A stretch of DNA of 29,811 nt from a bacterium (GTDB lineage: Bacteria; Hinthialibacterota; Hinthialibacteria; Hinthialibacterales; Hinthialibacteraceae), in the NCBI GenBank assembly GCA_963663405.2, contig CAXXSM010000054.1, forward strand, positions 1 through 29,811. Reading direction: 5' to 3'. The notes below the pieces were generated by a model, which saw nothing but the letters and a program-made list of their open reading frames with translations, was not told the DNA's origin and searched no databases. The first letter of the stretch is position 1. Each line of letters starts with the position of its first letter. A program made the translations under genes and the position numbers. Positions 1,886 to 19,669 of the stretch are shown here, in pieces.

Positions 1886-3286
1886 ATGAAGACTACGTTT
1901 TATCGAATCCTTGGGCTGGCTGTCTGTACAATGATGGCCTGCCTCCCGGGTCTCGGCGGATCTGCTTCTTTCGATTGATTTCGACGAGGGGAAGCGGTGG
2001 AACTGTCGCGTCAAGCGCAGGAGATCTGGTTGGCTCGCTAGGTAGAGTTGGCGCCGATCCGGATCTTGTCGCGGAAGTGAATGAAGACAGCGCATCTGGC
2101 GCCGCGGATGACAATTCGATCCATTTCCCAGGTGGAGATGGGCTCATCATGAGCGGGGATGATACCTCATTTGTGGATCTCATCTTAGGGCCAACGACAG
2201 TCGAAGCCTGGGTCAATGTCGATGAGTACGCCCAAGAATGGGAAGATATTTTCCGCCTTGAAAACACCTTGAAACTCGGTTTTCATAATGGAAGTATCGT
2301 CTTCACGACGTTAGGCGTCTACGATTATTTGAGTGAAGTGCCCGTTCCGGCTGGTGATTGGCATCATGTCGCCGTCGTGTGGGAACCCGGTGTTGGCGCC
2401 ACCTTCTATCTGGATGGCGTGGAATCCGCCTTTGTCGCGCATACCGGTTTAGCCCGTGATCCTGAAAACACCGACATCTCGATTGGATGGTCCCACGGAC
2501 AGACCAGCATGCTGATCGGTTCAATCGACCGTCTCCGTATGCATGCCGCGATGCTCGATCCAGCCGATTTGGATTCTGACGCCGCCAATCCGAAGGGCGT
2601 CTATGACTCCCACTGTCGTCGATTTAGGTCTCGACAGCCTGCCTTGCGCCGAACGCTGGTTCCGCGGGTCTTGAAGCGGATACGCTCCTGCGTACCGGTC
2701 TTCCCGAATTTGTGGCCGGAGCAACGGGTCAAAGCGGCGATTCCGCCCTCTCCTTCAATGGGATCAATTCCCGCGTTATCGTCCCGGATGACGACGGCGT
2801 GTTGCAGATTGAAGGAGACATGACGATTGAAGCGTATATCAAATGCGAAGGCGGTCAGCCCCAGGAACGTTCGATTCTTGTCGCGTATGGACTCCCCCAG
2901 GGTTATTCTTTCTCCATTCGTACTGAACGCTATCTTTTCGCAACCACGTATGGCATCAAAGACTTTGGTGAAGCAACCGACGCGATTATCCCCGATGACG
3001 GCGGTTGGCATCATGGCGCCGTCGTGCACGATAGCGCTGCTGGCGAAATGCGGTTCTACGTGGATGGCGAATTGAAGACCACGGTCGCATATACAGGGGG
3101 TATAATTGTTACGGAATATCAGCGCCTCTATTTGGGTATCGAAGCGAGCTACGACAATACTGCTTCAATCAATCCATACCTTGGTTCTCTCGATCGAGTC
3201 CGCATTTATAACGAAGTACTCGGCCCAGACCAGTTTGACATGGTTGAAAACCGCTTCCTCCGCTGGGGAATGGGATGTATTACTAA
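1886..3286 (+). CDS. Secreted protein with two LamG/concanavalin A-like domains (reconstructed across about six +1 frameshifts)
   Basis: RBS GAGGAG, then ATG at 1886 with signal peptide MKTTFYRILGLAVCTMMACLP. Then ADLLLSIDFDEGSG, LamG repeat 1 (TVEAWV, WHHVAVVW, FYLDG, GSIDRLR) and repeat 2 (TIEAYI, WHHGAVVHD, FYVDG, GSLDRVRIY). Deleting one base at about 1948, 1990, 2610, 2650, 3249 and 3273 joins ORFs 1975..2823 and 2712..3317 into one gene. The exact 3' end is inferred. Confidence 0.8.
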
Positions 3287-3344
3287 GAGAGAATCGATCT
3301 CCTATCCAACTGGATAGGAATTGATTTATTCGCAATGAAATGAT

Positions 3345-3380
3345 GATAGCTGGACCCTTATTGGCACAGCTATCTTTTTT
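3345..3380 (+). terminator. Rho-independent terminator between convergent genes
   Basis: GATAGCTG (3345-3352) pairs with CAGCTATC (3367-3374), followed by T6. A second hairpin TCCTATCC/GGATAGGA lies at 3300-3319. Confidence 0.65.
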
Positions 3381-3412
3381 GCTTTATAAAAGGAGAGGAA
3401 CGGAAACTACGC

Positions 3413-6208: not shown

Positions 6209-6466
6209 ATGTGAATCACCTATTATTATTTGTAGATCGTGCCTTAATCAGATTATTGCAGCGGCGCATAGAATCAAAACCCTTAACTTACTTTTCTTCC
6301 TTTCAAAGTGTAAATACCAGCCTAGGGGACTTTCGTGGATATAAGATTTGTGTTAACTTAGATAAAGTTCTATCTAGCGGAACAAAATTTCACTTTAGAA
6401 TAGGCGCGGCGGATTCCAAGGCGAGATGGTTTTTGGGATTGTCCGCCCTCAGAGGCAGGGGGAGTT

Positions 6467-7097
6467 ATGTCTACGCTTAAACAGGGTCCATTTTTCCTTC
6501 GTCGTTTTCAATCATTGCTGGGCATTATCCCAGTCGGCGTTTTCCTTGCCGAACATGCGTTTTACCAACAGCCTCGCATTTTTCTATGGCCCAGAGAAAT
6601 TCAACGAAGCCGTTGAATTTTTACAGAGCCTCCCATTCGTCACATTTCTTGAGATTTTCGCCATCGGTGTACCGATCCTGATCCACGCCGGGATTGGCAT
6701 CTACATTTGGATCTTCGGCGAAAGCAATGTGCAGCATTATGGTTATCTGCGGAATTGGCTCTATTCGCTTCAACGATGGACGGGGATTGTCGCGATCCTT
6801 TTTATCTTGTTCCACGTCTATAAACTGCGTATCGAGTGGACGTTCAATCCAGAGATTCATCATATCAATTTCGACTATGTGCAGGAATATTTCTCTCATA
6901 CCTGGCATGTGATCTTTTATTTCATTGGAGTCGCGGCTTCGGTGTTCCATTTCGCGAATGGAATTTGGAATTTCTTAGTCAAATGGGGCATCGCGATCGG
7001 CGAACAGGCGCAGACCGCGTCCGGGTATGTTTGCGCGGTCATTGGAATCGGTGTTTTCACATTTTTCATGCTTTCTCTCTATAAATTCAGTATCTAA
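6467..7097 (+). CDS. sdhC: Succinate dehydrogenase cytochrome b558 subunit (diheme, Bacillus-type); one +1 frameshift near 6561
   Basis: After RBS GGGGAG, ATG 6467 gives MSTLKQGPFFLRRFQSLLGIIPVGVFLAEHA, continuing as FTNS.. in ORF 6426..7097. Four heme-ligand His are present (EHA, IHAG, FHV, FHFANG), plus NWLYSLQRWTG. Confidence 0.9.
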
Positions 7098-7170
7098 AAG
7101 TTTCCTCCGAATGGCAGACCGGAGGAGAACGGGCGAAAGACAAATCAGTACGTAAGGGGGCATACCCATC

Positions 7171-9045
7171 ATGGCAAAACCGCGGTTTCTTGTCGTCGGC
7201 GGAGGCTTGGCCGGTCTGATGACCGTGATCAAACTCGCCGAAGCGGGACATCAAGTCGATCTCTTTTCCGTGGTCCCCCGTTAAGCGCTCACATTCTGTG
7301 TGCGCACAGGGGGGCATCAACGGAGCGGTGAACACGAAAGGGGAAGGAGATTCTCCCGACATTCACTTTTACGATACCGTCAAAGGCGGTGATTTTCTCG
7401 CCAATCAGCCACTCTGCAAAGATATGTGCTACCAAGCGCCCGCCATTATTTACTTGATGGACCGAATGGGCGTGACCTTCAACCGCACCAGTGAAGGGCT
7501 TCTTGATTTCCGCCGTTTCGGGGGCACTCTTTATAACCGCACCGCTTTTGCGGGTGCGACCACCGGTCAGCAATTGCTCTACGCGCTGGACGAACAGGTC
7601 CGCCGCTTTGAAGTCGATGGTCTCGTCAAAAAATACGAAAACATGGAATACCTGGGGATGGTCAAGGATTCGAACGGCTCCTGCCGTGGAATCGTTGCGA
7701 TCAACCTGGATACGATGGAGATTCAATCCTTCAAAGGCGATGCGGTGGCGCTGGCGACAGGCGGTCCCGGTTTAGTGTTTGGGCGTTCGACCAATTCAAT
7801 GATCAACACCGGCTCCGCCGCCGGGTCCGCGTACCGCGAAGGTGTGAAGTACGCCAATGGTGAATTTATCCAGATCCACCCCACGGCCATACCCGGTTAT
7901 GATAAGCTGCGCTTGATGTCAGAATCCGCGCGGGGCGAGGGAGGGCGCGTTTGGGTTCCGAAGAAAAAAAGGGGACACGCGTCCACCACGCGAAATCCCC
8001 GAAGAAGAACGCTGGTACTTCCTCGAAGAGAAATTCCCACGTTTTGGCAATCTTGTTCCACGTGATATCGCCGCTCAAGAAATATACGAAGTCTGCGTCA
8101 ACCAAGGATTGGGGGTCGGCGGCGGTAATATGGTCTTTTTGGACCTGACCCATATTCCACGCGAGGAACTCGATCGAAAACTCGCGGGGATCATGGAGAT
8201 CTACGAGAAATTCGCCGGAGACGACCCGCGCGATCTGCCGATGAAAATCTTCCCCGGCGTCCATTACAGCATGGGTGGCTTATGGGTGGATTATGAGGCT
8301 GACAGTCAGGGATTGCTGGAACGGACCAGCGCCCGTAATCATATGACTAATATTCCGGGTCTCTACGCGGTGGGTGAGGTGGATTATCAATACCACGGCG
8401 CGAACCGATTGGGCGCGAACTCACTTCTTTCCTGCCTGTTCGCAGGTCTGGTCGCCGGTCCAGCTATGGAAGTGTATTCGAAGAATCTCAATGGTTCTTC
8501 CGAGGATCAACCCGTAGGTATTTTTGAAGATGCCGAAAAGAAGTGGAAAGACCGTTTCGCGCAGATCGGTAAAATGGAAGGAAGCGAAAATCCATTTAAA
8601 TTGCACCAAGAGATGGGTGAAATGATGATCCGCACATGCACCATCGTGCGGCGGAATGAAGACTTGGCGAAAACGCTGGAAACATTGAAAGAATTCGACG
8701 AGCGCTGGAAGAACTGCAACGCGCTCGATACCGGCCAAGCCCGCAATCAGTCGATCCTGGGCATCAATCATCTGGATAATATGATCCAATTGGCGAAAGT
8801 GATGACCAAAGGCGCGCTTTTAAGAAATGAGTGCCGGGGCAGCCATCTCAAACCCGAATTCTTCCACGAACAGCCCAAAGATCAAAATTCGCCGGAATAT
8901 AAAGAGTACCTTGAGAAATGGAAAAAGAACAACGAGGAGTGGTTTGAAGACCACAATCGCCGAATATAAAGAGGTCGAACCGGAGATTACATATGAACCG
9001 GTTGACACCAGCCTAATCGAACCCGTGCCCCGCCGGTACGATTGA
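7171..9045 (+). CDS. sdhA: Succinate dehydrogenase flavoprotein subunit; three +1 frameshifts (about 7277, 7967, 8944)
   Basis: VVGGGLAGL Rossmann motif, FAD-binding RSHSVCAQGGING, QIHPT, SESARGEGG, VPRD, HYSMGG, HGANRLGANSL, RNECRGSH, ending VPRRYD. Confidence 0.95.
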
Positions 9046-9141
9046 CCTGCGCGGGATCTGTTATGAAAGCCCTTGGCATTGCATGGGAAGAGTGAATTCT
9101 TCTCACCAACAACAGAGAGAGAAGGCGGATAGGACTGAATC

Positions 9142-9890
9142 ATGGCCAAAATGATTGAACTGAAAATTAAACGCCAAATTGACGCGCAATCCGAGCCGTA
9201 TTGGGAAGAATTTCAAATTCCCTATCAGCCCAATATGAATGTCATCACCGTATTGCAGGAAATTCAACGCAATCCCGTTAACGCGAAAGGAGAGAAAACC
9301 ACACCCGTCGCCTGGGATTGCAGTTGCTTGGAGGAAGTGTGCGGCGCTTGTACGATGGTAATCAACAAGCAAACACGGCAATCGTGCAGCACTTTGATTG
9401 ATAATCTCGAACAACCCATCACGCTGGAAACCAATGCGGAAGTTCCCCGTCATTCATGACTTGGTGGTTAACCGTTCCCGCATGTTCGAAGCTCTCAAGA
9501 AAGTGCGCGCGTGGGTGGACATCGACGGGACCTACGATTTAGGACCCGGCCAGCGCCAGGCGCAAAGCGATCAAGAACAGATGTATGCCTTCTCGCGTTG
9601 TATGACTTGCGGTTGCTGTGTGGACGCCTGCCCGCAATACACTAAGGAAAGCCAATTTGTCGGTCCGGCCGCTCTCGGTCAGGTTTTCCTCTTCAATAAA
9701 AATCCCATCGGGAAATTTGTTGAGGATGTCCGCCTGCAATCCATCATGGGTGAAGGTGGGCATTCAGGATTGCGGCAACGCCCAGAATTGTGTTCGTGTT
9801 TGTCCTAAAGAGATCCCCCTAACTCGAGCCATTGCTAAACTCAACCGAGATACACTCAAACAAGCTCTTAAGGATCTCTTCGTGAATTAA
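9142..9890 (+). CDS. sdhB: Succinate dehydrogenase iron-sulfur subunit; two +1 frameshifts (about 9429, 9759)
   Basis: CLEEVCGAC...QSC (2Fe-2S), CMTCGCCVDACP, and CGNAQNCVRVCPKEI. Confidence 0.95.
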
Positions 9891-9994: not shown

Positions 9995-11041
9995 TCAATA
10001 CATCATCCATCCAGAGACACTGACTACTTCTTCTTCCACAAATTTAAGGATGCCGCGTGGGTAGTTGTGGAATCCACCGTCTCCCATGTCATTCCACGTG
10101 ATCAAGCCGATCCCTCTTTCATTATCGATAGCGTCTGTGTAACCACAGACGTTGAACAGCCATTCGTCACCTTCTTGGACGTATACGCCATTCTCATCTG
10201 GAATCATGATCAGGTTTTCGGCGAACATGTCCACATCTTCAATGACTTCTACATCCGGTAGAGCGGCCAAGCCGAGCTGCGAGTACGGAAACGCGATTTC
10301 CAGCACGGGAGAGGCGACAATGTCTTCTCCAAGAACAGCGCCTTCAATCAAATGCGGCAAAGCGGCCAGTAAAAGGGGTTTCACGCCCAATTCTTCCGCC
10401 AATACGGGATCGGAAGTTGGATCCCAACCACCTGGGGCATAAGATCCAGTAGTCCCTGTGTGGAAAAACGGCGGGCCTTCCGCGCCCCGGACACCAAAGT
10501 TGCCTTCATCCCAAACTTCACCATTTTCGTCAATATCCGCCTGGAGAGGAAAATAGCAGAGCTGGTAGGATGGTGAATCTCCTTCCTGATCGTTGAATCC
10601 ATCTCCCTCTTGCCAATCGGGTTCAAGAAAACATTCGAAATCGAGATTTTGTCCGACACCCCATCCCGCGTATCCTGTATCATCCGCTGCGAGAGGATCG
10701 ACGAGTACATCGGGATACGTCATGCCGTTAGGATTGAGGTAATTCAAGTCGGCGACCATCAGGAAATAGAAATAGTCATCATCCCAAAGCGCGCGCCAGC
10801 GCCAGTTGATATCGACTATTTCACCCTGATATTGCGCTAGACAGGCGCTGTGTCTCAAACCGTAGAAATCCCCCGTCCATGTCGAACCGGCCCATTCTTC
10901 CTCGGTATACTCCCCATCAATCACAGGAGGCGAGCCTGAAACCTTGTTCACTTCGTATTCCTTCGGCGGAGCCTGACAGAATACTGGAAGCGTAACAAAT
11001 GACAGAACAATGATACACAACAGCCAAACACGCATTCTCAT
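9995..11041 (-). CDS. Secreted acidic protein with an N-terminal CBM9/DOMON-like sugar-binding domain
   Basis: RBS AAGGAG before ATG 11041; signal peptide MRMRVWLLCIIVLSFVTLPVFC; PPVIDG..EEEW and WRALWDDDYFYF are CBM9-like; later LEIAFP; ends EEEVVSVSGWMMY. Confidence 0.65.
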   Translation of the reverse strand: MRMRVWLLCIIVLSFVTLPVFCQAPPKEYEVNKVSGSPPVIDGEYTEEEWAGSTWTGDFYGLRHSACLAQYQGEIVDINWRWRALWDDDYFYFLMVADLNYLNPNGMTYPDVLVDPLAADDTGYAGWGVGQNLDFECFLEPDWQEGDGFNDQEGDSPSYQLCYFPLQADIDENGEVWDEGNFGVRGAEGPPFFHTGTTGSYAPGGWDPTSDPVLAEELGVKPLLLAALPHLIEGAVLGEDIVASPVLEIAFPYSQLGLAALPDVEVIEDVDMFAENLIMIPDENGVYVQEGDEWLFNVCGYTDAIDNERGIGLITWNDMGDGGFHNYPRGILKFVEEEVVSVSGWMMY

Positions 11042-11109
11042 CTCTTTCTCCTTTTTTAATTGATTTCTTATGCGATCTTCACACAAGATAAAATATCAAA
11101 AGCTTCTTG

Positions 11110-11278: not shown

Positions 11279-13333
11279 TTAGTGAGAATTCTGCTTCAAT
11301 TTCTTTATGCAAGTCACTTTATACTGCAGTTCGTCACGAGTGTTTACTTCACAAACACTGCCTTTTTTATAAGCGCGTTGAGCGTCTTCTTTTCGATTTA
11401 ACAATTCGTACATGAAACCTTGGTAGTAAAAAGAAGCGGGATGGGGATGTTCGGATTGCGTTAAGCGATCATAAATAGCGATAACGGTTTCTTGTTGTTC
11501 CGTCAATTGATCCTGTAGAATGACGTGCGCAGCCTCCAAATCCGGTTGACTTTGAACGAGTTTTTCAAGGACACTAAACGCCGTTGGATCGTCACTGGCG
11601 AATAATAGAAGGGTGTAATGCAAGAGGATTAATGAAGAATCCGGATCGAGATTCAATGCGGACTGCAAAGCGGATCGAGATTCTTCCAACCGGTTCAATT
11701 GGAATAGCAAAACACCCAGTTCCCGGTAGGCGTTCACATTTTTAGGATCGTCTTTGACTGAGTCTTTGAAATACGCGGCCGCCTCATCTGTTTTCTTTTC
11801 TTTCAAACAGATAAGTCCCATGTAATATTTCGCTACGGCATAATTCGCATTCAATTTCAAAGCTTTCTTGAACGATGCTTTCGCGCTTTCCAAATCTCCT
11901 CGATCTAGAGCGGCTTTACCCGTATCCAGATAAACTTCAGGAATCTCGATCTGCCCGAATCCATATCCCCCCATCATACCCATACCCATACCCATTCCCA
12001 TTCCTCCCGCTGGCGGCGCCATCCCATACATCCCCATCCCATACCCACCTACCGGAGGAGGAATTGGAGTGGGCACATTCAATGGACCGCCCAATAGGAC
12101 TTTGAATTCGTCCTGATAGTCTTGTTTGAAGGCTTTGGTCAAAGCCTGCCCCGGCGCGTCGCTGGGAACTGTTTCGTCCAACATGTATAGCAAAGTCGGG
12201 TAGACATCATAGATGGAAGCCTTGCTTTTTTCTGTAGCCGGTTCTATAGCGCCTCCCGCTAACAGGAGAAGCCCTTCTTTGACACGCAGGGAAGCGGGCG
12301 CCGTGCTCTCTTCAATATCTCCTGCAGCCGCTGAACGCAAGCCATAGCCGGACACCAGAACGAAATAATCGTCATCCGCATAAAAGTTGAGCAATTCTCC
12401 TATGATCCGGTCGGTATAGCGGTAGTAGTCTTCAATGATGGACTGATAGGCGCCGCGGAGTTCTTCGTTCGCCTTTTCCGGAGGGGTGAGTTGTTCTCGG
12501 ATGCGGCCGGTTCCTTCAAGATAGATCATCGCCATTTCGGGTTGACTGTTTCTCCACAGATTCTCCGCGATACGCCGGCAGGATTCAGCGGACGCAAGAG
12601 CGCGCTTAATTACACTGAATTGTTTTTGGTAATTCTCCTGCTCGCGTATGAGCGCCATTCTCTTTTCGCCGATAAACAACTCCACAGACGCGTCGGCGAT
12701 ATCCGAGGCGGTTAATAAATAAGAGGCGAGTTCATCTTGTAAAGATCCTGGATGGATCAGATTACCAGTGATATCAGAATCACCTACAGGGAAATCGTAA
12801 ATATACTGATCCGAGACTATAGAGCCATAAATGTATTCTACCGGCCATGTCCCCCACCAACCGATCACATCGACATTCCGGCCAAAAGAAGATAGGACAT
12901 TCCAGATCGCGGGAATGCGCCGATTTGCGCTGGAAACCACTGTCACGTCATGGATATCGGCGCTCACTTCCGAATCCAATATTCCGTGTACTTTCCGGGG
13001 ATAACCCGTAGCGATCGTCGTCCAAATGGAAGGCGCCAACAAGGGTTCTTCGGATTCCAAAATAAATCCTCTACCCTGTTTCAAAATGGATTCAATATGC
13101 GGCGCTTTCCCTTTTTCGATTAACGACAGTAGAAAGTCCCAATCTGCGCCTTCCAGACCTGCCACGAGAACGCGAGAACCTTCAAATGGATGATGCGTAG
13201 GCTGAACAGCGGCCATTGACGTTGGCGTTATCGTTGGCGCCGTGGGCGCTTGTGTTTTGGTACAGGCGCTTGCTAAAAGAGCTCCAATAAAAAGTACAAT
13301 CAACCAGTTACAATTTCGATAGGCGTTCTTCAT
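11279..13333 (-). CDS. Lipoprotein: alkaline-phosphatase-superfamily (type I phosphodiesterase-like) domain, Gly/Met-rich linker, TPR repeats; probably catalytically inactive
   Basis: Likely start MKNAYRNCNWLIVLFIGALLASA-C (lipobox), then a Thr/Pro tether. RVLVAGLEGADW, WTTIATG..HGI, PAIWN and WWGTWP give the AP fold. TPRs include GKAALDRGDLESAKASFKKALKLN and AYRELGVLLFQLNRLEESRSALQSALNLDP. The ORF is open upstream to 13597. Confidence 0.8.
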   Translation of the reverse strand: MKNAYRNCNWLIVLFIGALLASACTKTQAPTAPTITPTSMAAVQPTHHPFEGSRVLVAGLEGADWDFLLSLIEKGKAPHIESILKQGRGFILESEEPLLAPSIWTTIATGYPRKVHGILDSEVSADIHDVTVVSSANRRIPAIWNVLSSFGRNVDVIGWWGTWPVEYIYGSIVSDQYIYDFPVGDSDITGNLIHPGSLQDELASYLLTASDIADASVELFIGEKRMALIREQENYQKQFSVIKRALASAESCRRIAENLWRNSQPEMAMIYLEGTGRIREQLTPPEKANEELRGAYQSIIEDYYRYTDRIIGELLNFYADDDYFVLVSGYGLRSAAAGDIEESTAPASLRVKEGLLLLAGGAIEPATEKSKASIYDVYPTLLYMLDETVPSDAPGQALTKAFKQDYQDEFKVLLGGPLNVPTPIPPPVGGYGMGMYGMAPPAGGMGMGMGMGMMGGYGFGQIEIPEVYLDTGKAALDRGDLESAKASFKKALKLNANYAVAKYYMGLICLKEKKTDEAAAYFKDSVKDDPKNVNAYRELGVLLFQLNRLEESRSALQSALNLDPDSSLILLHYTLLLFASDDPTAFSVLEKLVQSQPDLEAAHVILQDQLTEQQETVIAIYDRLTQSEHPHPASFYYQGFMYELLNRKEDAQRAYKKGSVCEVNTRDELQYKVTCIKKLKQNSH

Positions 13334-13673
13334 TGATCTGTGTATTCGCTTCCTGCAGGATTTTCTGAATGATCGCGATGCGTTGTCTGTGTTTTTAATA
13401 ACAATATGATTAGTACGAATTATCTTGCGAATCTCATCATACAGATATTTCACACAGGGAAACCGCTCCAGTAATTGCAAAACAATAAATCCCTCACTGG
13501 ATCGAATCGGCTTACTAACATCACCGGGCGCAAGCATATGTACGGCGCGGTCGATCGCAGGAGAAATGGGCAGAGTGATTGTCTCGTCCCGTTTCACAGT
13601 TAGATCCGGATGAGAATCGACTTCGGCTCTACTCCCTAGTAGACGTTGAACCGGATAAATTGTTTTACAGTCT
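13334..13673 (-). pseudogene. Degenerate parvulin/PrsA-SurA-type peptidyl-prolyl isomerase fragment
   Basis: PAIDRAVHMLAPGDVSKPIRSSEGFIVLQLLER matches the parvulin C-terminal pattern (P.F..A...L..GevS.Pi.S..G..iikl.e). The N-terminal half is absent and an in-frame stop lies upstream. Confidence 0.5.
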
Positions 13674-14814: not shown

Positions 14815-16251
14815 TTACACTAACGAATAAATCCATTCGATCAGCCGCGCCGGAACGGTTCCCATCCATAACAGTAAAAGAGTTAACAATGCCAATGCGA
14901 AACAACTGGCCCAAGGGAGAGGGATATTCGCTTGGATTGCCGGACGGGTGTTTTCAGCGTTAGAAAACATCGTGACGATAATGCGGAGATAGTAGAACAA
15001 TCCGATGGAACTACTGAGCGCCAACACCAGCACAATCAACCATTCCGCGGAACGGACTCCCGCGGCGACAATATAAAACTTACCGATAAAACCACCAGTC
15101 AAAGGAATCCCCGCGAGGGAGAGAAGCGCAAATGTAAAAATCCCAGCGATCCAGGGCCGCCGCCAATAAAGACCAAGATAATCATCCAATTCTTCCGCCT
15201 CGGTCTCTTTGGTGGATAAGATACTGATAATCCCGAAGGCGATCAATGTCGTAATCATATACGCGGTGATATAGAAAATTCCAGCGGACGCAGCGATCGA
15301 ATTTACAGCGATTATCGTGACCAATAAATACCCCAGATGAGCGATGGATGAAAAGGCCAGGATGCGTTTGACATTATTCTGCATCAAGGCCAACCAATTC
15401 CCCGCCAACATCGAGACGATAGCGATTAGCGCCAACGAGAAATAGAGAATCGGCGCATTCGGAACATCAGCAGGCCTGAAATACCGCAGGACAACAGCAA
15501 ACATCCCACCTTTCGAAACAGTGGCGATGAACGCTGTGATTGGAGCGGCGGCGCCTTGGTAAACGTCCGGTGTCCATAGATGAAACGGAACGAGCGCGAG
15601 TTTGAATCCGACTCCCACCAACATCATGGCCAAGCCTGTCAATAAGATAACACTCGCTTCTGTTTTGCCTCCATTGAGAATCGTTGTGATTTCGCCGAGA
15701 TTCATCGTTCCCAAATCGGCATAGATCAATGCCATGCCAAATAAAAAGAAGGCGGAAGAGACAGAGGCGAGTATCAAATATTTAATGCCCGCTTCCAAAC
15801 AACGGATTTCTTTCCGTAAATAAGATATCAACCCATACAGTGAAATCGTAAGAATTTCCAATCCCAACAGCAGGGACGCAAAATGACTGCTGGCCGCCAA
15901 AACAGATGATCCCAGCGACGCCAGCAACATGAGCAAATAGAGTTCTTCCGGGTACTTCACATCTCTGCCATCCATATAATTGTATGTAAGAAGACACACG
16001 GACGCCGTGGCGGCCAGAATCAATCCCATAAAGTAAAACGCGAATCCATCCACCCGGATCAGCTCCGTGGCTTGTTGGGGAAGATAGCCGGTTACTAGAA
16101 AAAGAGAGAGAAACGCCGCGAATAAAACAGAAAGTGATAGTATGACCGTGAGTCGATGACAGCGATAGAAGGGAATGACCAGCATAACCAACACGGATCC
16201 GAAGGCAAGAATCATATAGGGAACAAGAGCGATCAGCGCCGAGGTGTTCAT
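14815..16251 (-). CDS. nuoN: NADH-quinone oxidoreductase subunit N
   Basis: LEAGIKY, GFKLALVPFHLWTPDVYQGA, NVKRILAFSSIAHLGY, SLAGIPLTGGFIGK; last gene of the operon. Confidence 0.96.
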   Translation of the reverse strand: MNTSALIALVPYMILAFGSVLVMLVIPFYRCHRLTVILSLSVLFAAFLSLFLVTGYLPQQATELIRVDGFAFYFMGLILAATASVCLLTYNYMDGRDVKYPEELYLLMLLASLGSSVLAASSHFASLLLGLEILTISLYGLISYLRKEIRCLEAGIKYLILASVSSAFFLFGMALIYADLGTMNLGEITTILNGGKTEASVILLTGLAMMLVGVGFKLALVPFHLWTPDVYQGAAAPITAFIATVSKGGMFAVVLRYFRPADVPNAPILYFSLALIAIVSMLAGNWLALMQNNVKRILAFSSIAHLGYLLVTIIAVNSIAASAGIFYITAYMITTLIAFGIISILSTKETEAEELDDYLGLYWRRPWIAGIFTFALLSLAGIPLTGGFIGKFYIVAAGVRSAEWLIVLVLALSSSIGLFYYLRIIVTMFSNAENTRPAIQANIPLPWASCFALALLTLLLLWMGTVPARLIEWIYSLV

Positions 16252-17789
16252 CGAATGCCTCCCCCTATATCAGAACTCAATGGTTGTGGTGGGAGATAAG
16301 AATAATGTTCAACTTCGTTTGGCAATAAGAGCAATCGATCGATGGTTGGCTGAACGGTATCTAAAACAGGTTGTGGATAGAGTCCCAAAACGATCAAAAA
16401 GAGAATCAAGGCGCCTACGATAATCCACTCCCGCATACATAAATCGTCAATCCGCCAGTTTTCCGTATTCGGTCCTAGAAAAACTTTCTGCATCAAGCGC
16501 AAAGAGTACACCGTGGCGAATACCAATCCAATTACGGACAATCCCGCCAAGACCATGCTGACTTGATATACGCCGATGAGAATTAAAAACTCGGCGACGA
16601 AATTCGCCAGCCCCGGCAGACCTAAAGAAGCCATGACAAACACCATCGTTACGCCCCCCATGCGCGGCGCGGCGGACCACAAACCGCCCATGCGATCCAG
16701 ATCGCGGGTATGCGTACGCTCGTGCAAGATCCCAGCCATGATAAACAAGGCGGAGGTGCTTAATCCATGCGCGATCATCTGCATGACCGTTCCCTGATAC
16801 GCCCACTCATTCATGGCAAATATGCCGAGTAAAACGAATCCCATATGACTGACGCTGGTGTACGCCACCAGACGTTTGAAATCCGTCTGCGCAAAGGCTA
16901 ACTTAGCGCCATATAAAATACCGATCGCGCCCAGTGTCATCGCATAAGGGGCCAGCGCTTCCGCCGCATTGGGGAAAATCGGTAGGACAAAACGCAACAG
17001 ACCATACGCGCCCGTTTTGAGAAGGAGCCCGGCCAATATCACGCTGCCGGCCGTCGGCGCTTCTGTATGCGCGTCAGGCAGCCATGTATGAATCGGCACG
17101 GCGGGCAGTTTAACAGCGAACGCTAGGACAAATCCCCACATCAACCACCAGGCCGTCCAACTATCCATATCCGTATGGATCAGGTCATTGTAGTTAAAGG
17201 TATAATCGCCTGTTGTTTGACCGTGAATAAAATAAACGCCTAAAATACCCAACAGCATCAACAGCCCACTTACTTGAGTGAAAATGAAAAACTTATAGGC
17301 GGCGTAGATCCGGTTTTCATGCCCCCAAACGCCGATTAGAAAATACATCGGCACAAGCATTAGTTCCCAGAAAAAGTAGAATAGGAATAGATCGAGCGCT
17401 AGAAACACCCCAACAATTCCTGCCAATACCCAGAGCAGATTTAGATGAAAAAAGCCTATACGCTCTGTGATTTCCTTCCAGGAAACGAGCACGGCGAGGA
17501 TTCCAAGGAACAACGTCAAGATCACCATCGTCAGGCTCAAACCATCAATTCCCAAATGAAATTCGATACCGAGTTGGGGAATCCACGGCGTTTTCCAAAC
17601 GGCGATCCAAGAATTGTTTTCCGTTGCCGGATCGATCCAAGTCCGCCCACAAATCGAAATCGCCAGCAGCAGGTCGATAACCAGAGCGCTTAGAGCGGTC
17701 CAACGGGCGTTTTGCGCATTCCAACGGCTGACCACCGCCGAAAGCAGGCCGCTAAGAAGCAAGATGAGAATCAGAAACAATAAAATCAT
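16248..17789 (-). CDS. nuoM: NADH-quinone oxidoreductase subunit M
   Basis: DGLSL, FWELMLVPMY, AVKLP.VPIHTWLPDAHTEAP, KRLVAYTSVSHMG; start ATG overlaps the nuoL stop (ATGA at 17786-17789). Confidence 0.96.
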   Translation of the reverse strand: MILLFLILILLLSGLLSAVVSRWNAQNARWTALSALVIDLLLAISICGRTWIDPATENNSWIAVWKTPWIPQLGIEFHLGIDGLSLTMVILTLFLGILAVLVSWKEITERIGFFHLNLLWVLAGIVGVFLALDLFLFYFFWELMLVPMYFLIGVWGHENRIYAAYKFFIFTQVSGLLMLLGILGVYFIHGQTTGDYTFNYNDLIHTDMDSWTAWWLMWGFVLAFAVKLPAVPIHTWLPDAHTEAPTAGSVILAGLLLKTGAYGLLRFVLPIFPNAAEALAPYAMTLGAIGILYGAKLAFAQTDFKRLVAYTSVSHMGFVLLGIFAMNEWAYQGTVMQMIAHGLSTSALFIMAGILHERTHTRDLDRMGGLWSAAPRMGGVTMVFVMASLGLPGLANFVAEFLILIGVYQVSMVLAGLSVIGLVFATVYSLRLMQKVFLGPNTENWRIDDLCMREWIIVGALILFLIVLGLYPQPVLDTVQPTIDRLLLLPNEVEHYSYLPPQPLSSDIGGGIR

Positions 17790-19669
17790 AGCAGTACCAC
17801 TAACGCGATTAAAATAATGGCCCCCACAGCGACGCCGGAGGCGTACCAACGAATATTCCCAGTCTGGGTTTGGCGCAAGGTCCAGTACAAGCCATAATTC
17901 ACCCAGGTAATCCATTGCGGGATGGCGTCGAACGCATCCTGTTTGTTCCAGCGCGCGGCGCAGACAAATGGCTGAATGAAGATCGCGTTATACAGATCGT
18001 CAAACCGCCAGCCGTGAAACCAGAAATTCCGCACGTTATTCAATAGGGGATATGTCATTAGGGCCTGCGGCATGTCCGGCTTTTTGTAATACGCCACATA
18101 CGCGAGATAAATTCCTCCAAACGTCACTGCCGCCGCGATCAGTTGCATCAACACTTCCAATCCCACAGAACCGCGCTCTTCCGCATGAGGCAAAGCGGTA
18201 TGGAGAAAACCGGAAAAAGGGGCGAATCCCCCAAGGGAATGCGGCATATCGAGGAATCCGGCGATCACGGAAAAAACAGCCAATATCACCAAAGGCGTTT
18301 GAATGCGCAAGCCCGGATACTGATGGATTTCTTTTTTCTGTTCACCAAAGAATGTGACAATAACCATGCGGGAAGAATAAACAGCGGTAATGAACGCCCC
18401 CAGAATTCCCGCCAGCCAAAGCCATCCGCTGCCGCTATCGAGAATCAAGGCGTTCCATAAGATAGCGTCTTTGCTGTAAAATCCGGCTGTAACCAATGGC
18501 AGCGCCGCCAGCGAGGCGGAGCCGATTAAGAAGGTCCAAAATGTTATAGGCAGTTTTTTATAAAGACCACCCATTTTAAACATATCATGTTCATGACTCA
18601 TGGCCATGATCACCGCGCCAGCGCTCAAAAAGAGCAGCGCTTTAAAAAAAGCATGGGTCATGAAATGGAACACCGCCGCCGACCAGGCCCCCACACCCAA
18701 AGCAAGGAACATATACCCGATTTGGCTGATCGTAGAGTAAGCGAGAACACGTTTAATGTCCCTTTGAACCAACGCGCTGCAACCGGCCACCAATAATGTG
18801 ATCGCTCCAACGATCGCCACAACCAGTTGGATCGAGGGAGCCAGTTCAAACAGAACATGCGTGCGGGCGATTAGATAAACACCGGCGGTTACCATTGTGG
18901 CGGCATGGATCAGCGCGCTGACTGGAGTTGGACCCGCCATAGCGTCTGGCAGCCAGGTTTGCAACGGTAATTGGGCCGATTTGCCAAACGCGCCGATCAT
19001 CAACATCAACGCCGCTGTAATGGCGGCGGTCGAGCCGGTTTCCCACCGCTTTGGCGCCAATTGTAAAATCTCTTGGATATGCAGCGTGCCGAAATGAGTA
19101 AAAAGCAAGAACAGTCCGATCGCCATAGCGGCGTCCCCCACGCGGGTGACAATAAACGCTTTTTGCGCCGCATGGCCGTTCGCCGAATCCTGATACCAAA
19201 ATCCGATCAAGAGATAACTGCATAAGCCTACGCCTTCCCAGCCGAGATACAGGAAGACAAGGTTGTCCGCCAATACCAATAACAACATCGACATGACGAA
19301 CAAATTCATATACGCGAAAAACCGGGCGTAGCCGGGATCCTCCGTCATGAATTCGGTGGAATACAAATGGATTAAAAATCCGACAAATGTCACAACCAAC
19401 ATGAAGATTACGGATAACGCGTCCAGATGTAGACCGATCGCTGGATCGAATCCTCTAACATCCATCCATGTCCATAAGACTTGGGTAAACTCCGTCTGAC
19501 CGGAATGCAGAAACGACACCGTCACCAGCAGGCTGCAAACCAGCGACAGCCCCATAGCCGTCAACGTGATGACAGCGATCGCTTTGCGGGTAAACGTTCC
19601 TCCCGCAAGCGCAAGAAGCAGGAATCCAATCAGTGGAAATGTGGGAACCAGCCAGAGCGTGTTTAGCAT
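17786..19669 (-). CDS. nuoL: NADH-quinone oxidoreductase subunit L
   Basis: WEGVGLCSYLLIGFW, GKSAQLPLQTWLPDAMAGPTPVSALIHAATMVTAG, HAFFKALLFL. Confidence 0.97.
   Translation of the reverse strand: MLNTLWLVPTFPLIGFLLLALAGGTFTRKAIAVITLTAMGLSLVCSLLVTVSFLHSGQTEFTQVLWTWMDVRGFDPAIGLHLDALSVIFMLVVTFVGFLIHLYSTEFMTEDPGYARFFAYMNLFVMSMLLLVLADNLVFLYLGWEGVGLCSYLLIGFWYQDSANGHAAQKAFIVTRVGDAAMAIGLFLLFTHFGTLHIQEILQLAPKRWETGSTAAITAALMLMIGAFGKSAQLPLQTWLPDAMAGPTPVSALIHAATMVTAGVYLIARTHVLFELAPSIQLVVAIVGAITLLVAGCSALVQRDIKRVLAYSTISQIGYMFLALGVGAWSAAVFHFMTHAFFKALLFLSAGAVIMAMSHEHDMFKMGGLYKKLPITFWTFLIGSASLAALPLVTAGFYSKDAILWNALILDSGSGWLWLAGILGAFITAVYSSRMVIVTFFGEQKKEIHQYPGLRIQTPLVILAVFSVIAGFLDMPHSLGGFAPFSGFLHTALPHAEERGSVGLEVLMQLIAAAVTFGGIYLAYVAYYKKPDMPQALMTYPLLNNVRNFWFHGWRFDDLYNAIFIQPFVCAARWNKQDAFDAIPQWITWVNYGLYWTLRQTQTGNIRWYASGVAVGAIILIALVVLL

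Follow-up and report, generated by a model that had tools for sequence, protein, structure and literature searches.

C-terminal sorting signals decide which proteins bacteria show on their surface. To our knowledge, every catalogued signal of this kind is either a tripartite signal held in the membrane or a folded domain. An extreme C-terminal motif is also found in type I secretion, where an acidic residue followed by hydrophobic residues stands at the very end of substrates such as the metalloproteases and HasA, and dockerins are calcium-binding modules of about 60-70 residues. The tripartite signals are described in passages of bioRxiv 10.1101/2023.06.07.544157 as a near-terminal signature motif that is followed by a transmembrane helix and an Arg-rich cluster, occurs in many copies on proteins with signal peptides, and is restricted to certain lineages. 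The C-terminal domain (CTD) of the type IX secretion system (T9SS) is a folded Ig-like beta-sandwich according to a passage in PMC11285876. Here, we analysed a stretch of 29,811 nucleotides (hereafter the window; positions 1 to 29,811 of contig CAXXSM010000054.1, assembly GCA_963663405.2) from a member of the Hinthialibacterota, and identified within it a gene for an exported protein with a CBM9 fold that ends in a ten-residue tag. Since this tag has no membrane segment, the principle by which it is recognised must differ from that of the catalogued types.

We found that the tail is one copy of a motif shared by about 2% of the large open reading frames (ORFs) of the genome. The tag itself is almost certainly real. 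It is probably a short linear C-terminal tag used throughout one uncultured diderm phylum, for which we infer a role in sorting or anchoring. The tag carrier in the window and its two terminal elements are as follows:

9995..11041, minus strand: gene for the exported CBM9-fold protein (the ORF spans 9995..11086, with a Met at 11041)
9995..10027, minus strand: C-terminal tag, the last ten codons and the stop, from the translation of the CBM9-like gene
10970..11041, minus strand: Sec-type signal peptide of about 24 residues ending ..FCQA, from the sequence, with the cleavage site read by eye

A preliminary description of the window, made from the letters alone, had reported the ending of the CBM9-like protein and a Sec-type signal peptide at its start, and both were confirmed: the ORF terminates exactly as described in ...FVEEEVVSVSGWMMY-stop, with VVSVSGWMMY as the last ten residues, and a classical signal peptide opens the protein from Met 11041, with a helix at residues 2-22 in the structural model. 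On a tag matrix of ten columns, trained on 99 tagged ORF termini, the tail scores 22.1 bits, the highest of the 1340 stop-adjacent 10-mers in the window. The AlphaFold2 model, built from 21 homologues, has a mean predicted local distance difference test (pLDDT) of 87.9, and its best Foldseek matches are the CBM9 structures 7nwn and 1i82 (E 1e-7, target TM-score 0.64). The Pfam CBM9_1 match falls below the cut-off (E 0.005, 17.2 bits versus 23.4), and thus the protein is assigned to CBM9 by its modelled fold and weakly by its sequence. Residues 344-349 have pLDDT values below 50 and lie beyond the last strand of the fold (331-336); the tail is therefore predicted to be unstructured and free of the fold. 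Tryptophan occupies position -4 in 31 of 36 database homologues, and in three more the motif is extended by one or two residues. Across the 21 aligned sequences W346 and M347 are invariant and the linker is variable.

The gene adjoining the CBM9-like gene upstream on the same strand (window 11279-13597, minus strand) encodes a 772-residue protein with a type I phosphodiesterase/alkaline-phosphatase-like domain and a block of TPR repeats, and the two genes may form an operon.

The source genome (8.44 Mb in 170 contigs, 82% complete) yielded 28,461 stop-to-stop ORFs of at least 80 residues, and we compared the number ending in a given pattern with the expectation from the internal frequency of the same pattern. 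W-x-[LIVMF]-[YF] terminates 129 of these ORFs, with 10.3 expected. The strict motif, [VI]-x-x-W-x-[LIVMF]-[YF] at the C-terminus, terminates 104, with 1.15 expected, in agreement with the enrichment at protein ends that the preliminary description anticipated. When the strict motif is sought 1-7 residues inward, the counts collapse to 13, 5, 3, 3, 0, 1 and 1, which ties the motif to the very end of the protein. It is found chiefly on long ORFs, for it ends 57 of the 2,595 ORFs of 300-600 residues, 32 of the 899 longer ones and four of the 20,508 of 80-150 residues. On the tag matrix, 141 of the 5,499 termini of ORFs of at least 200 residues (training termini included) reach 10 bits or more, compared with three of 109,980 random internal 10-mers. 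Once shadow ORFs were removed, 144 of 6,634 ORFs were tagged, with a median length of 442 residues. The codons that encode the tag differ from gene to gene, and together with the invariance of W346 and M347 in the CBM9-like family this indicates that selection acts on the protein sequence. The residue counts in the logo of the 104 strict-motif termini, by position from the C-terminus, were:

-9: T 55, V 30
-8: P 29, S 22, A 19
-7: V 83, I 21
-5: D 27, N 19, E 13
-4: W 104
-2: L 71, V 18
-1: Y 76, F 28

The general consensus is [T/V](-9)-[P/S/A](-8)-[V/I](-7)-x-[D/N/E](-5)-W(-4)-x-[L/V/I/M](-2)-[Y/F](-1), with S, E or A at position -3 in the logo; the broader carrier set also admits H at the last position ([Y/F/H]-COOH). 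Ahead of the tag stands a short linker that is acidic or proline-rich, with E, P and G prominent. The pattern S(-8)..W(-4)-M(-3)..Y(-1), which the preliminary description had offered as the candidate tag, is a version specific to one family, and the genome-wide consensus differs from it. The 'V.dW.LY' termini mentioned there for candidate phyla such as OLB16 match both this consensus and the Hinthialibacterota/OLB16 lineage.

Export of the carriers is indicated by their N-termini, another point on which the preliminary description had asked for a comparison. Signal-peptide-like N-termini were found in 85 of 99 tagged ORFs compared with 2,246 of 5,383 untagged ORFs, all of at least 200 residues (odds ratio 8.5; Fisher p 3e-19), by a simple heuristic whose crudeness tempers this support, as 42% of the untagged ORFs pass it too. 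The tagged N-termini plainly consist of M-K/R, a hydrophobic core and an A-x-A type site, and most of the exceptions look truncated. Pfam families were present in 20 of 40 tagged proteins sampled (the first 40 of the 80 with at most 720 residues, out of 99), namely Beta_helix, Laminin_G_3, LRR_4, CBM9_1, GH5 Cellulase, Sulfatase, LTD, CotH and 3keto-disac_hyd, and the other 20 had no Pfam family. The carrier domains are mutually unrelated. No model spans the tail in the 40 tagged proteins searched with Pfam or the 41 searched with NCBIfam. In one tagged beta-helix protein the NCBIfam choice_anch_Q domain (residues 596-639 of 655) lies directly ahead of the tag. None of the eight ORFs in the genome with at least four CxxCH motifs (candidate multihaem cytochromes) is tagged.

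The ends of homologous proteins suggest what the tag stands in for. Among 120 homologues of a tagged beta-helix/choice-of-anchor-Q protein, eight end in the tag, four in PF18962 (the T9SS CTD), four in a dockerin (PF00404) and two in a tail of the membrane-anchor type, hydrophobic and then basic; one of the PF18962 homologues is named as a T9SS sorting-domain protein from Zixibacteria. The tag ends 79 of 120 CotH homologues, a further 13 have the tag plus 1-2 residues (usually acidic) and four carry PF18962, and a CotH group labelled Planctomycetota ends without any tail. Thus, the tag fills a slot that is used elsewhere by surface sorting or docking modules. Orthologues keep the tag and vary in the linker.

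In the same beta-helix/choice-of-anchor-Q set, a different tail, ..[LVF]-Y-L-P-[LV]-V-x-[RK]-G-[YA], is shared by seven homologues (P0061-P0063, P0092, P0115, P0123 and P0138, one of them labelled Anaerolineae) and may be another uncatalogued C-terminal signal.

The phylum is represented in our collection by 35 species genomes of one class. A scan with a degenerate DNA pattern for V-x-x-W-x-L-[YF]-stop, with the reversed pattern as control, took in 31 of the 35, all within the phylum. The pattern occurs 57 times in the source genome versus eight for the control, and in 18 of 18 genomes of the same family it gave 18-47 matches each versus 1-9. Other families are mixed, with pattern and control counts of 18/0, 17/6 and 35/3, but also of 4/4, 2/0 and 1/0. 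Over the whole scan, most of the 31 genomes show an excess of the coding pattern. In the tag-poor genomes G027 and G022, the three ORFs inspected finish in the tag; two of them are long and have signal peptides, and the third has 173 residues and no evident signal peptide.

Database records point to the same lineage. Labels among the tagged database homologues are limited to Hinthialibacter, Omnitrophota/Omnitrophica and 'bacterium', and the tagged CotH homologues belong by name to Candidatus Hinthialibacter antarcticus and Hinthialibacter sp. The orthologues sit in metagenome-assembled genomes labelled Candidatus Omnitrophota, one of which is named as isolate SURF_12; a passage in PMC9324843 assigns SURF_12 to OLB16, that is, Candidatus Hinthialibacterota. 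In the literature on C-terminal sorting signals and on Hinthialibacterota/OLB16 and Omnitrophota, represented mostly by listings, we found no description of the tag, and the term 'C-terminal' occurs 0 times in PMC9324843. The short, lineage-specific secretion or anchoring tag proposed in the preliminary description is thus supported by its enrichment, its association with export and its presence across the phylum, and it is probably an address or anchoring label for which we found no earlier description. It also allows the proteins that this polysaccharide-degrading phylum secretes or shows on its surface to be predicted by a simple rule.

The T9SS CTD (TIGR04183/PF18962) is among the described systems closest to the tag. 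Its cargo is exported by Sec, is mostly glycan-active or adhesin-like, occurs many times per genome and carries the signal at its extreme C-terminus; PF18962 takes the position of the tag in homologues, and PorU-like C25 peptidases are present in the tag genome. However, the tag is about ten residues long and predicted to be unstructured, whereas the CTD is a folded domain of about 70-100 residues. TIGR04183 and PF18962 had no match in the genome, a weak negative as no control genome matched either, and none was found among the 41 tagged proteins searched with NCBIfam or the 40 searched with Pfam. Likewise, the T9SS translocon SprA/Sov gave 0 matches with SprA_N (PF14349) in this 82%-complete genome, again a weak negative since no control genome matched, and PorV (NF033710) gave 0 matches in the same genome.

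The tag resembles LPXTG/sortase, PEP-CTERM/exosortase, GlyGly-CTERM/rhombosortase and MYXO-CTERM/myxosortase in being a terminal motif present in many copies, on proteins with signal peptides, in a restricted lineage. It differs from these tripartite signals in that it has neither a transmembrane helix nor a basic cluster; 138 of the 144 tagged termini have Y, F or H as their final residue. Tagged proteins have no transmembrane segment after the motif, as they stop four residues past the invariant Trp, and the logo of the last 16 positions shows no enrichment of K or R. This supports the preliminary description in setting the tail apart from LPXTG, PEP-CTERM, GlyGly-CTERM and the T9SS CTD. A chain that stops so soon after the invariant Trp leaves no membrane-held tail for an intramembrane protease to act on, and the reader of the tag cannot be of that kind.

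Type I secretion offers a likeness in the motif itself, since the tag too has an acidic or amide residue and then W-x-L-Y at the very C-terminus. Type I substrates, however, have no N-terminal signal peptides, and a type I signal does not fit carriers that mostly have them. Dockerins share the C-terminal slot with the tag, as seen in the beta-helix homologues, and a docking role would be compatible with a free peptide; no cohesin-like partner came to light, though no search was aimed at one.

As the motif is unfolded, tied to the protein end and free of any membrane segment or basic cluster, the simplest reading is a linear peptide that is read by a soluble or outer-membrane receptor or enzyme. 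Carriers would first be exported by Sec, and a dedicated receptor or processing enzyme, either periplasmic or at the outer membrane, would then recognise the free, unstructured tail, send the protein to the cell surface or the exterior and possibly tether it there. The best candidates for such a reader, put forward tentatively and as a lead, are two exported PorU-like cysteine peptidases of the C25 family, which by analogy with PorU could remove the tag and link the protein to a glycan at the surface.

Three C25 peptidase genes occur in the genome, and two of their products match the PorU model NF033707 (221.9 bits, E 1e-65, profile 122-766; 185.4 bits, E 1e-54, profile 137-733), so that by sequence they appear to resemble the T9SS sortase PorU well past the catalytic domain. 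The long one has about 1,820 residues, with one break in the assembly, and the short one 1,307; N-terminal signal peptides are found on both types. PorU-like matches turn up throughout the phylum (35 of 35 genomes), with two or more in 31 of the 35, and the ORF sizes suggest that both types are represented across them. H515 and C554, which we take to be the catalytic pair of the C25 family, are invariant in ten orthologues. The gene after the long paralogue encodes a TPR protein in same-family genomes, and in two genomes from another family TPR, Wzy_C (O-antigen-ligase-like) and GT4 genes come next on the same strand; GT4 genes also occur near C25 in two further families. The short paralogue faces a gene for a polytopic membrane protein in all four same-family loci compared; PMT_2 is found in about 37% of the members of the Atlas clusters nearest to that protein, which is only a lead. 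This neighbourhood fits a PorU-like cleavage and attachment onto surface glycan, by analogy. One could go further and envisage a system independent of the T9SS in which a free C-terminus of 9-10 residues is the whole signal and C25 transpeptidases cleave the cargo and attach it to a glycan made by the neighbouring ligase and glycosyltransferase genes, as a minimal relative of T9SS attachment; we consider this a doubtful possibility. If the PorU-like link were true, it would tie the attachment step of the T9SS to a simpler and possibly older system. The C25 pair is a new lead and provides a concrete candidate enzyme family, and a synthetic tag peptide could serve as bait for the reader.

Several points weigh against a sorting tag of this kind or against the C25 pair as its reader. 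Some homologues add one or two residues after the tag, usually Asp or Glu (..W-x-L-Y-D/E, ..W-A-L-M-E/D; P0160, P0202, P0204, P0205, P0208, P0209, P0270-P0274 and others, and P0018, P0033 and P0034), and the last residue among the 144 tagged ORFs is Y in 86, F in 30, H in 22, R in four and Q in two. The final residue thus tolerates more variation than W(-4), and an aromatic carboxylate at the very end may not be strictly needed. The PorU of the T9SS works on a folded domain presented by PorV, neither of which was found in the genome searched, and both NF033707 matches lie under the curated cut-off of 420 bits, so the C25 proteins are called PorU-like here rather than PorU. Their genes do not adjoin tagged genes, and the link between tag and C25 consists of analogy and co-presence in the phylum; as tag-poor genomes keep the C25 genes, there is no contrast of presence and absence to exploit. 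Among the 853 ORFs within 4 kb of the 144 tagged genes, no family is clearly enriched; the one outlier (p 3.5e-9) was a very large single-linkage cluster of multidomain proteins and was not interpretable. We found no conserved tag-like strand inside the C25 proteins, where the best scores (at most 9.5 bits) are unconserved, and complex prediction for the PorU-like region 14-686 with the mature CBM9-like protein (24-349) gave no answer (score 0.00).

The third C25 protein (G000:C92:26471-37256, L125) has a gingipain-type propeptide. Over a single frame break it is joined to a giant protein whose regions include FG-GAP, beta-helix and DUF5123, for a combined length of about 3,600 residues.

The tag could instead target proteins to a type II secretion system (T2SS) as a linear signal, read by a periplasmic component before export through the GspD secretin, a reading that we regard as unlikely. 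The genome has nine Secretin-family matches, eight of them above the cut-off, including one GspD-type secretin with N0 and three Secretin_N domains. It lies in a T2SS-like cluster (G000:C29:1151-13825), where it is preceded by ORFs with prepilin-like N-termini and by ATPase- or platform-sized genes (roles read by eye); an ORF of 183 residues also lies beside it. In addition, the carriers are folded glycan-degrading or glycan-binding proteins, the kind that the T2SS exports in other bacteria. Nothing, however, connects the tag to this T2SS-like cluster, none of the ten PDZ-containing ORFs found is GspC-like, and we know of no linear T2SS signal in any organism.

It is also distinctly improbable that the tail is a site for periplasmic PDZ proteases, of the S41 C-terminal processing or HtrA type, and serves maturation or quality control rather than sorting. 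The motif is strictly terminal and hydrophobic/aromatic, the type of C-terminus that PDZ domains bind, and proteases of this kind are present in the genome as four HtrA-type enzymes, two S41 peptidases and one M56-PDZ-S41 fusion. These proteases, however, are housekeeping types of most bacteria, whereas the tag is lineage-specific, and a degradation signal common to more than 140 stable secreted enzymes is hard to envisage. The replacement of known anchoring modules by the tag in homologues argues for sorting rather than turnover. PDZ proteins were also considered as readers of the sorting tag and rejected, as all ten are ordinary (HtrA, S41, M61, RseP, the M56-S41 fusion and a beta-helix-PDZ protein).

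The fusion is itself an unusual protein of 1,122 residues (G000:C132:84155-87523, L082) that combines a BlaR1-type M56 peptidase, a FliF-C-like region, a PDZ domain and an S41 peptidase, and about 4 kb separates its gene from a paralogue of the CBM9-like gene.

An outer-membrane beta-signal read by the beta-barrel assembly machinery or the translocation and assembly module is highly improbable, even though the terminal residue is mostly aromatic (Y or F in 116 of 144) and the genome has two Omp85-family genes, of BamA-like and TamA-like size. Signals of that type, found on beta-barrel proteins, combine a terminal aromatic residue with alternating hydrophobic residues at -3, -5 and -7. Positions -3 (S/E/A) and -5 (D/N/E) of the tag are polar and not hydrophobic, which does not fit a beta-barrel signal, position -6 is not glycine, and the carriers are soluble lectin, enzyme and repeat domains and not barrels. 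This reading is largely refuted by the logo. That the shared ending arose by chance, composition or assembly artefact has next to no probability and is refuted for the tag as a whole, for although the assembly has many single-base frame errors and one tail in the window is tag-like only after correction, the count of 104 termini against an expected 1.15, the differing codons, and the recurrence of the tag both in public protein sets and in 30 further genomes assembled independently all speak against it.

The corrected tail belongs to a second gene of the window:

1886..3286, plus strand: double-LamG gene, in at least three reading frames in the assembly, with two Laminin_G_3 domains
3240..3286, plus strand: tail of the LamG gene, tag-like only after two bases are dropped, from frame reconstruction

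The preliminary description had assigned glycan-binding-type folds to both the CBM9-like and the LamG protein and noted a C-terminal tail common to the two. The folds were borne out, for the former by Foldseek and for the latter by two PF13385 (Laminin_G_3) domains (E 2.7e-20 and 1.6e-18; 73.5 and 67.8 bits). With regard to the tail, the CBM9-like copy is real, but it is one copy of a genome-wide tag rather than half of a private pair, and the LamG copy holds in part. Its tag-like ending requires one base less in the A run at 3247-3250 and one less in the G run at 3272-3274, which places the stop at 3284-3286. The resulting read-through keeps W(-4) and Y(-1), together with M(-3), but V/I at -7 and L/V at -2 are missing; with only 5.9 bits on the tag matrix, it is a weak copy of the tag.

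The five nearest LamG orthologues, from same-family genomes, are 50-55% identical and have intact ORFs of 476-686 residues. Together with six homologues, all 11 relatives finish in the tag straight after a conserved ..QFDxV.., with W at -4 in ten; the remaining one has one extra residue, and several have W-M at -4/-3. Other genes of the window are also split between frames. The succinate dehydrogenase/fumarate reductase genes sdhA and sdhB (6426-9890, plus strand) are broken into several frames, with the FAD_binding_2 profile divided into 40-291 and 309-414 over two ORFs; the iron-sulfur subunit is divided as well, its Fer2_3 and Fer4 parts lying in overlapping ORFs. These breaks point to single-base assembly errors, which would be common in the window, and not to pseudogenes. 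The tags of the orthologues and the frame-split neighbours both support the LamG read-through. Public reads at the LamG region came from one run and gave contigs of depth 2 at 1989-2232, 2281-2432, 2447-2610 and 2784-3105, with none over 3106-3400.

Elsewhere in the window (14815-19669, minus strand), three consecutive Proton_antipo_M genes encode proteins of 478, 555 and 627 residues of the ordinary complex I/Mrp antiporter type.

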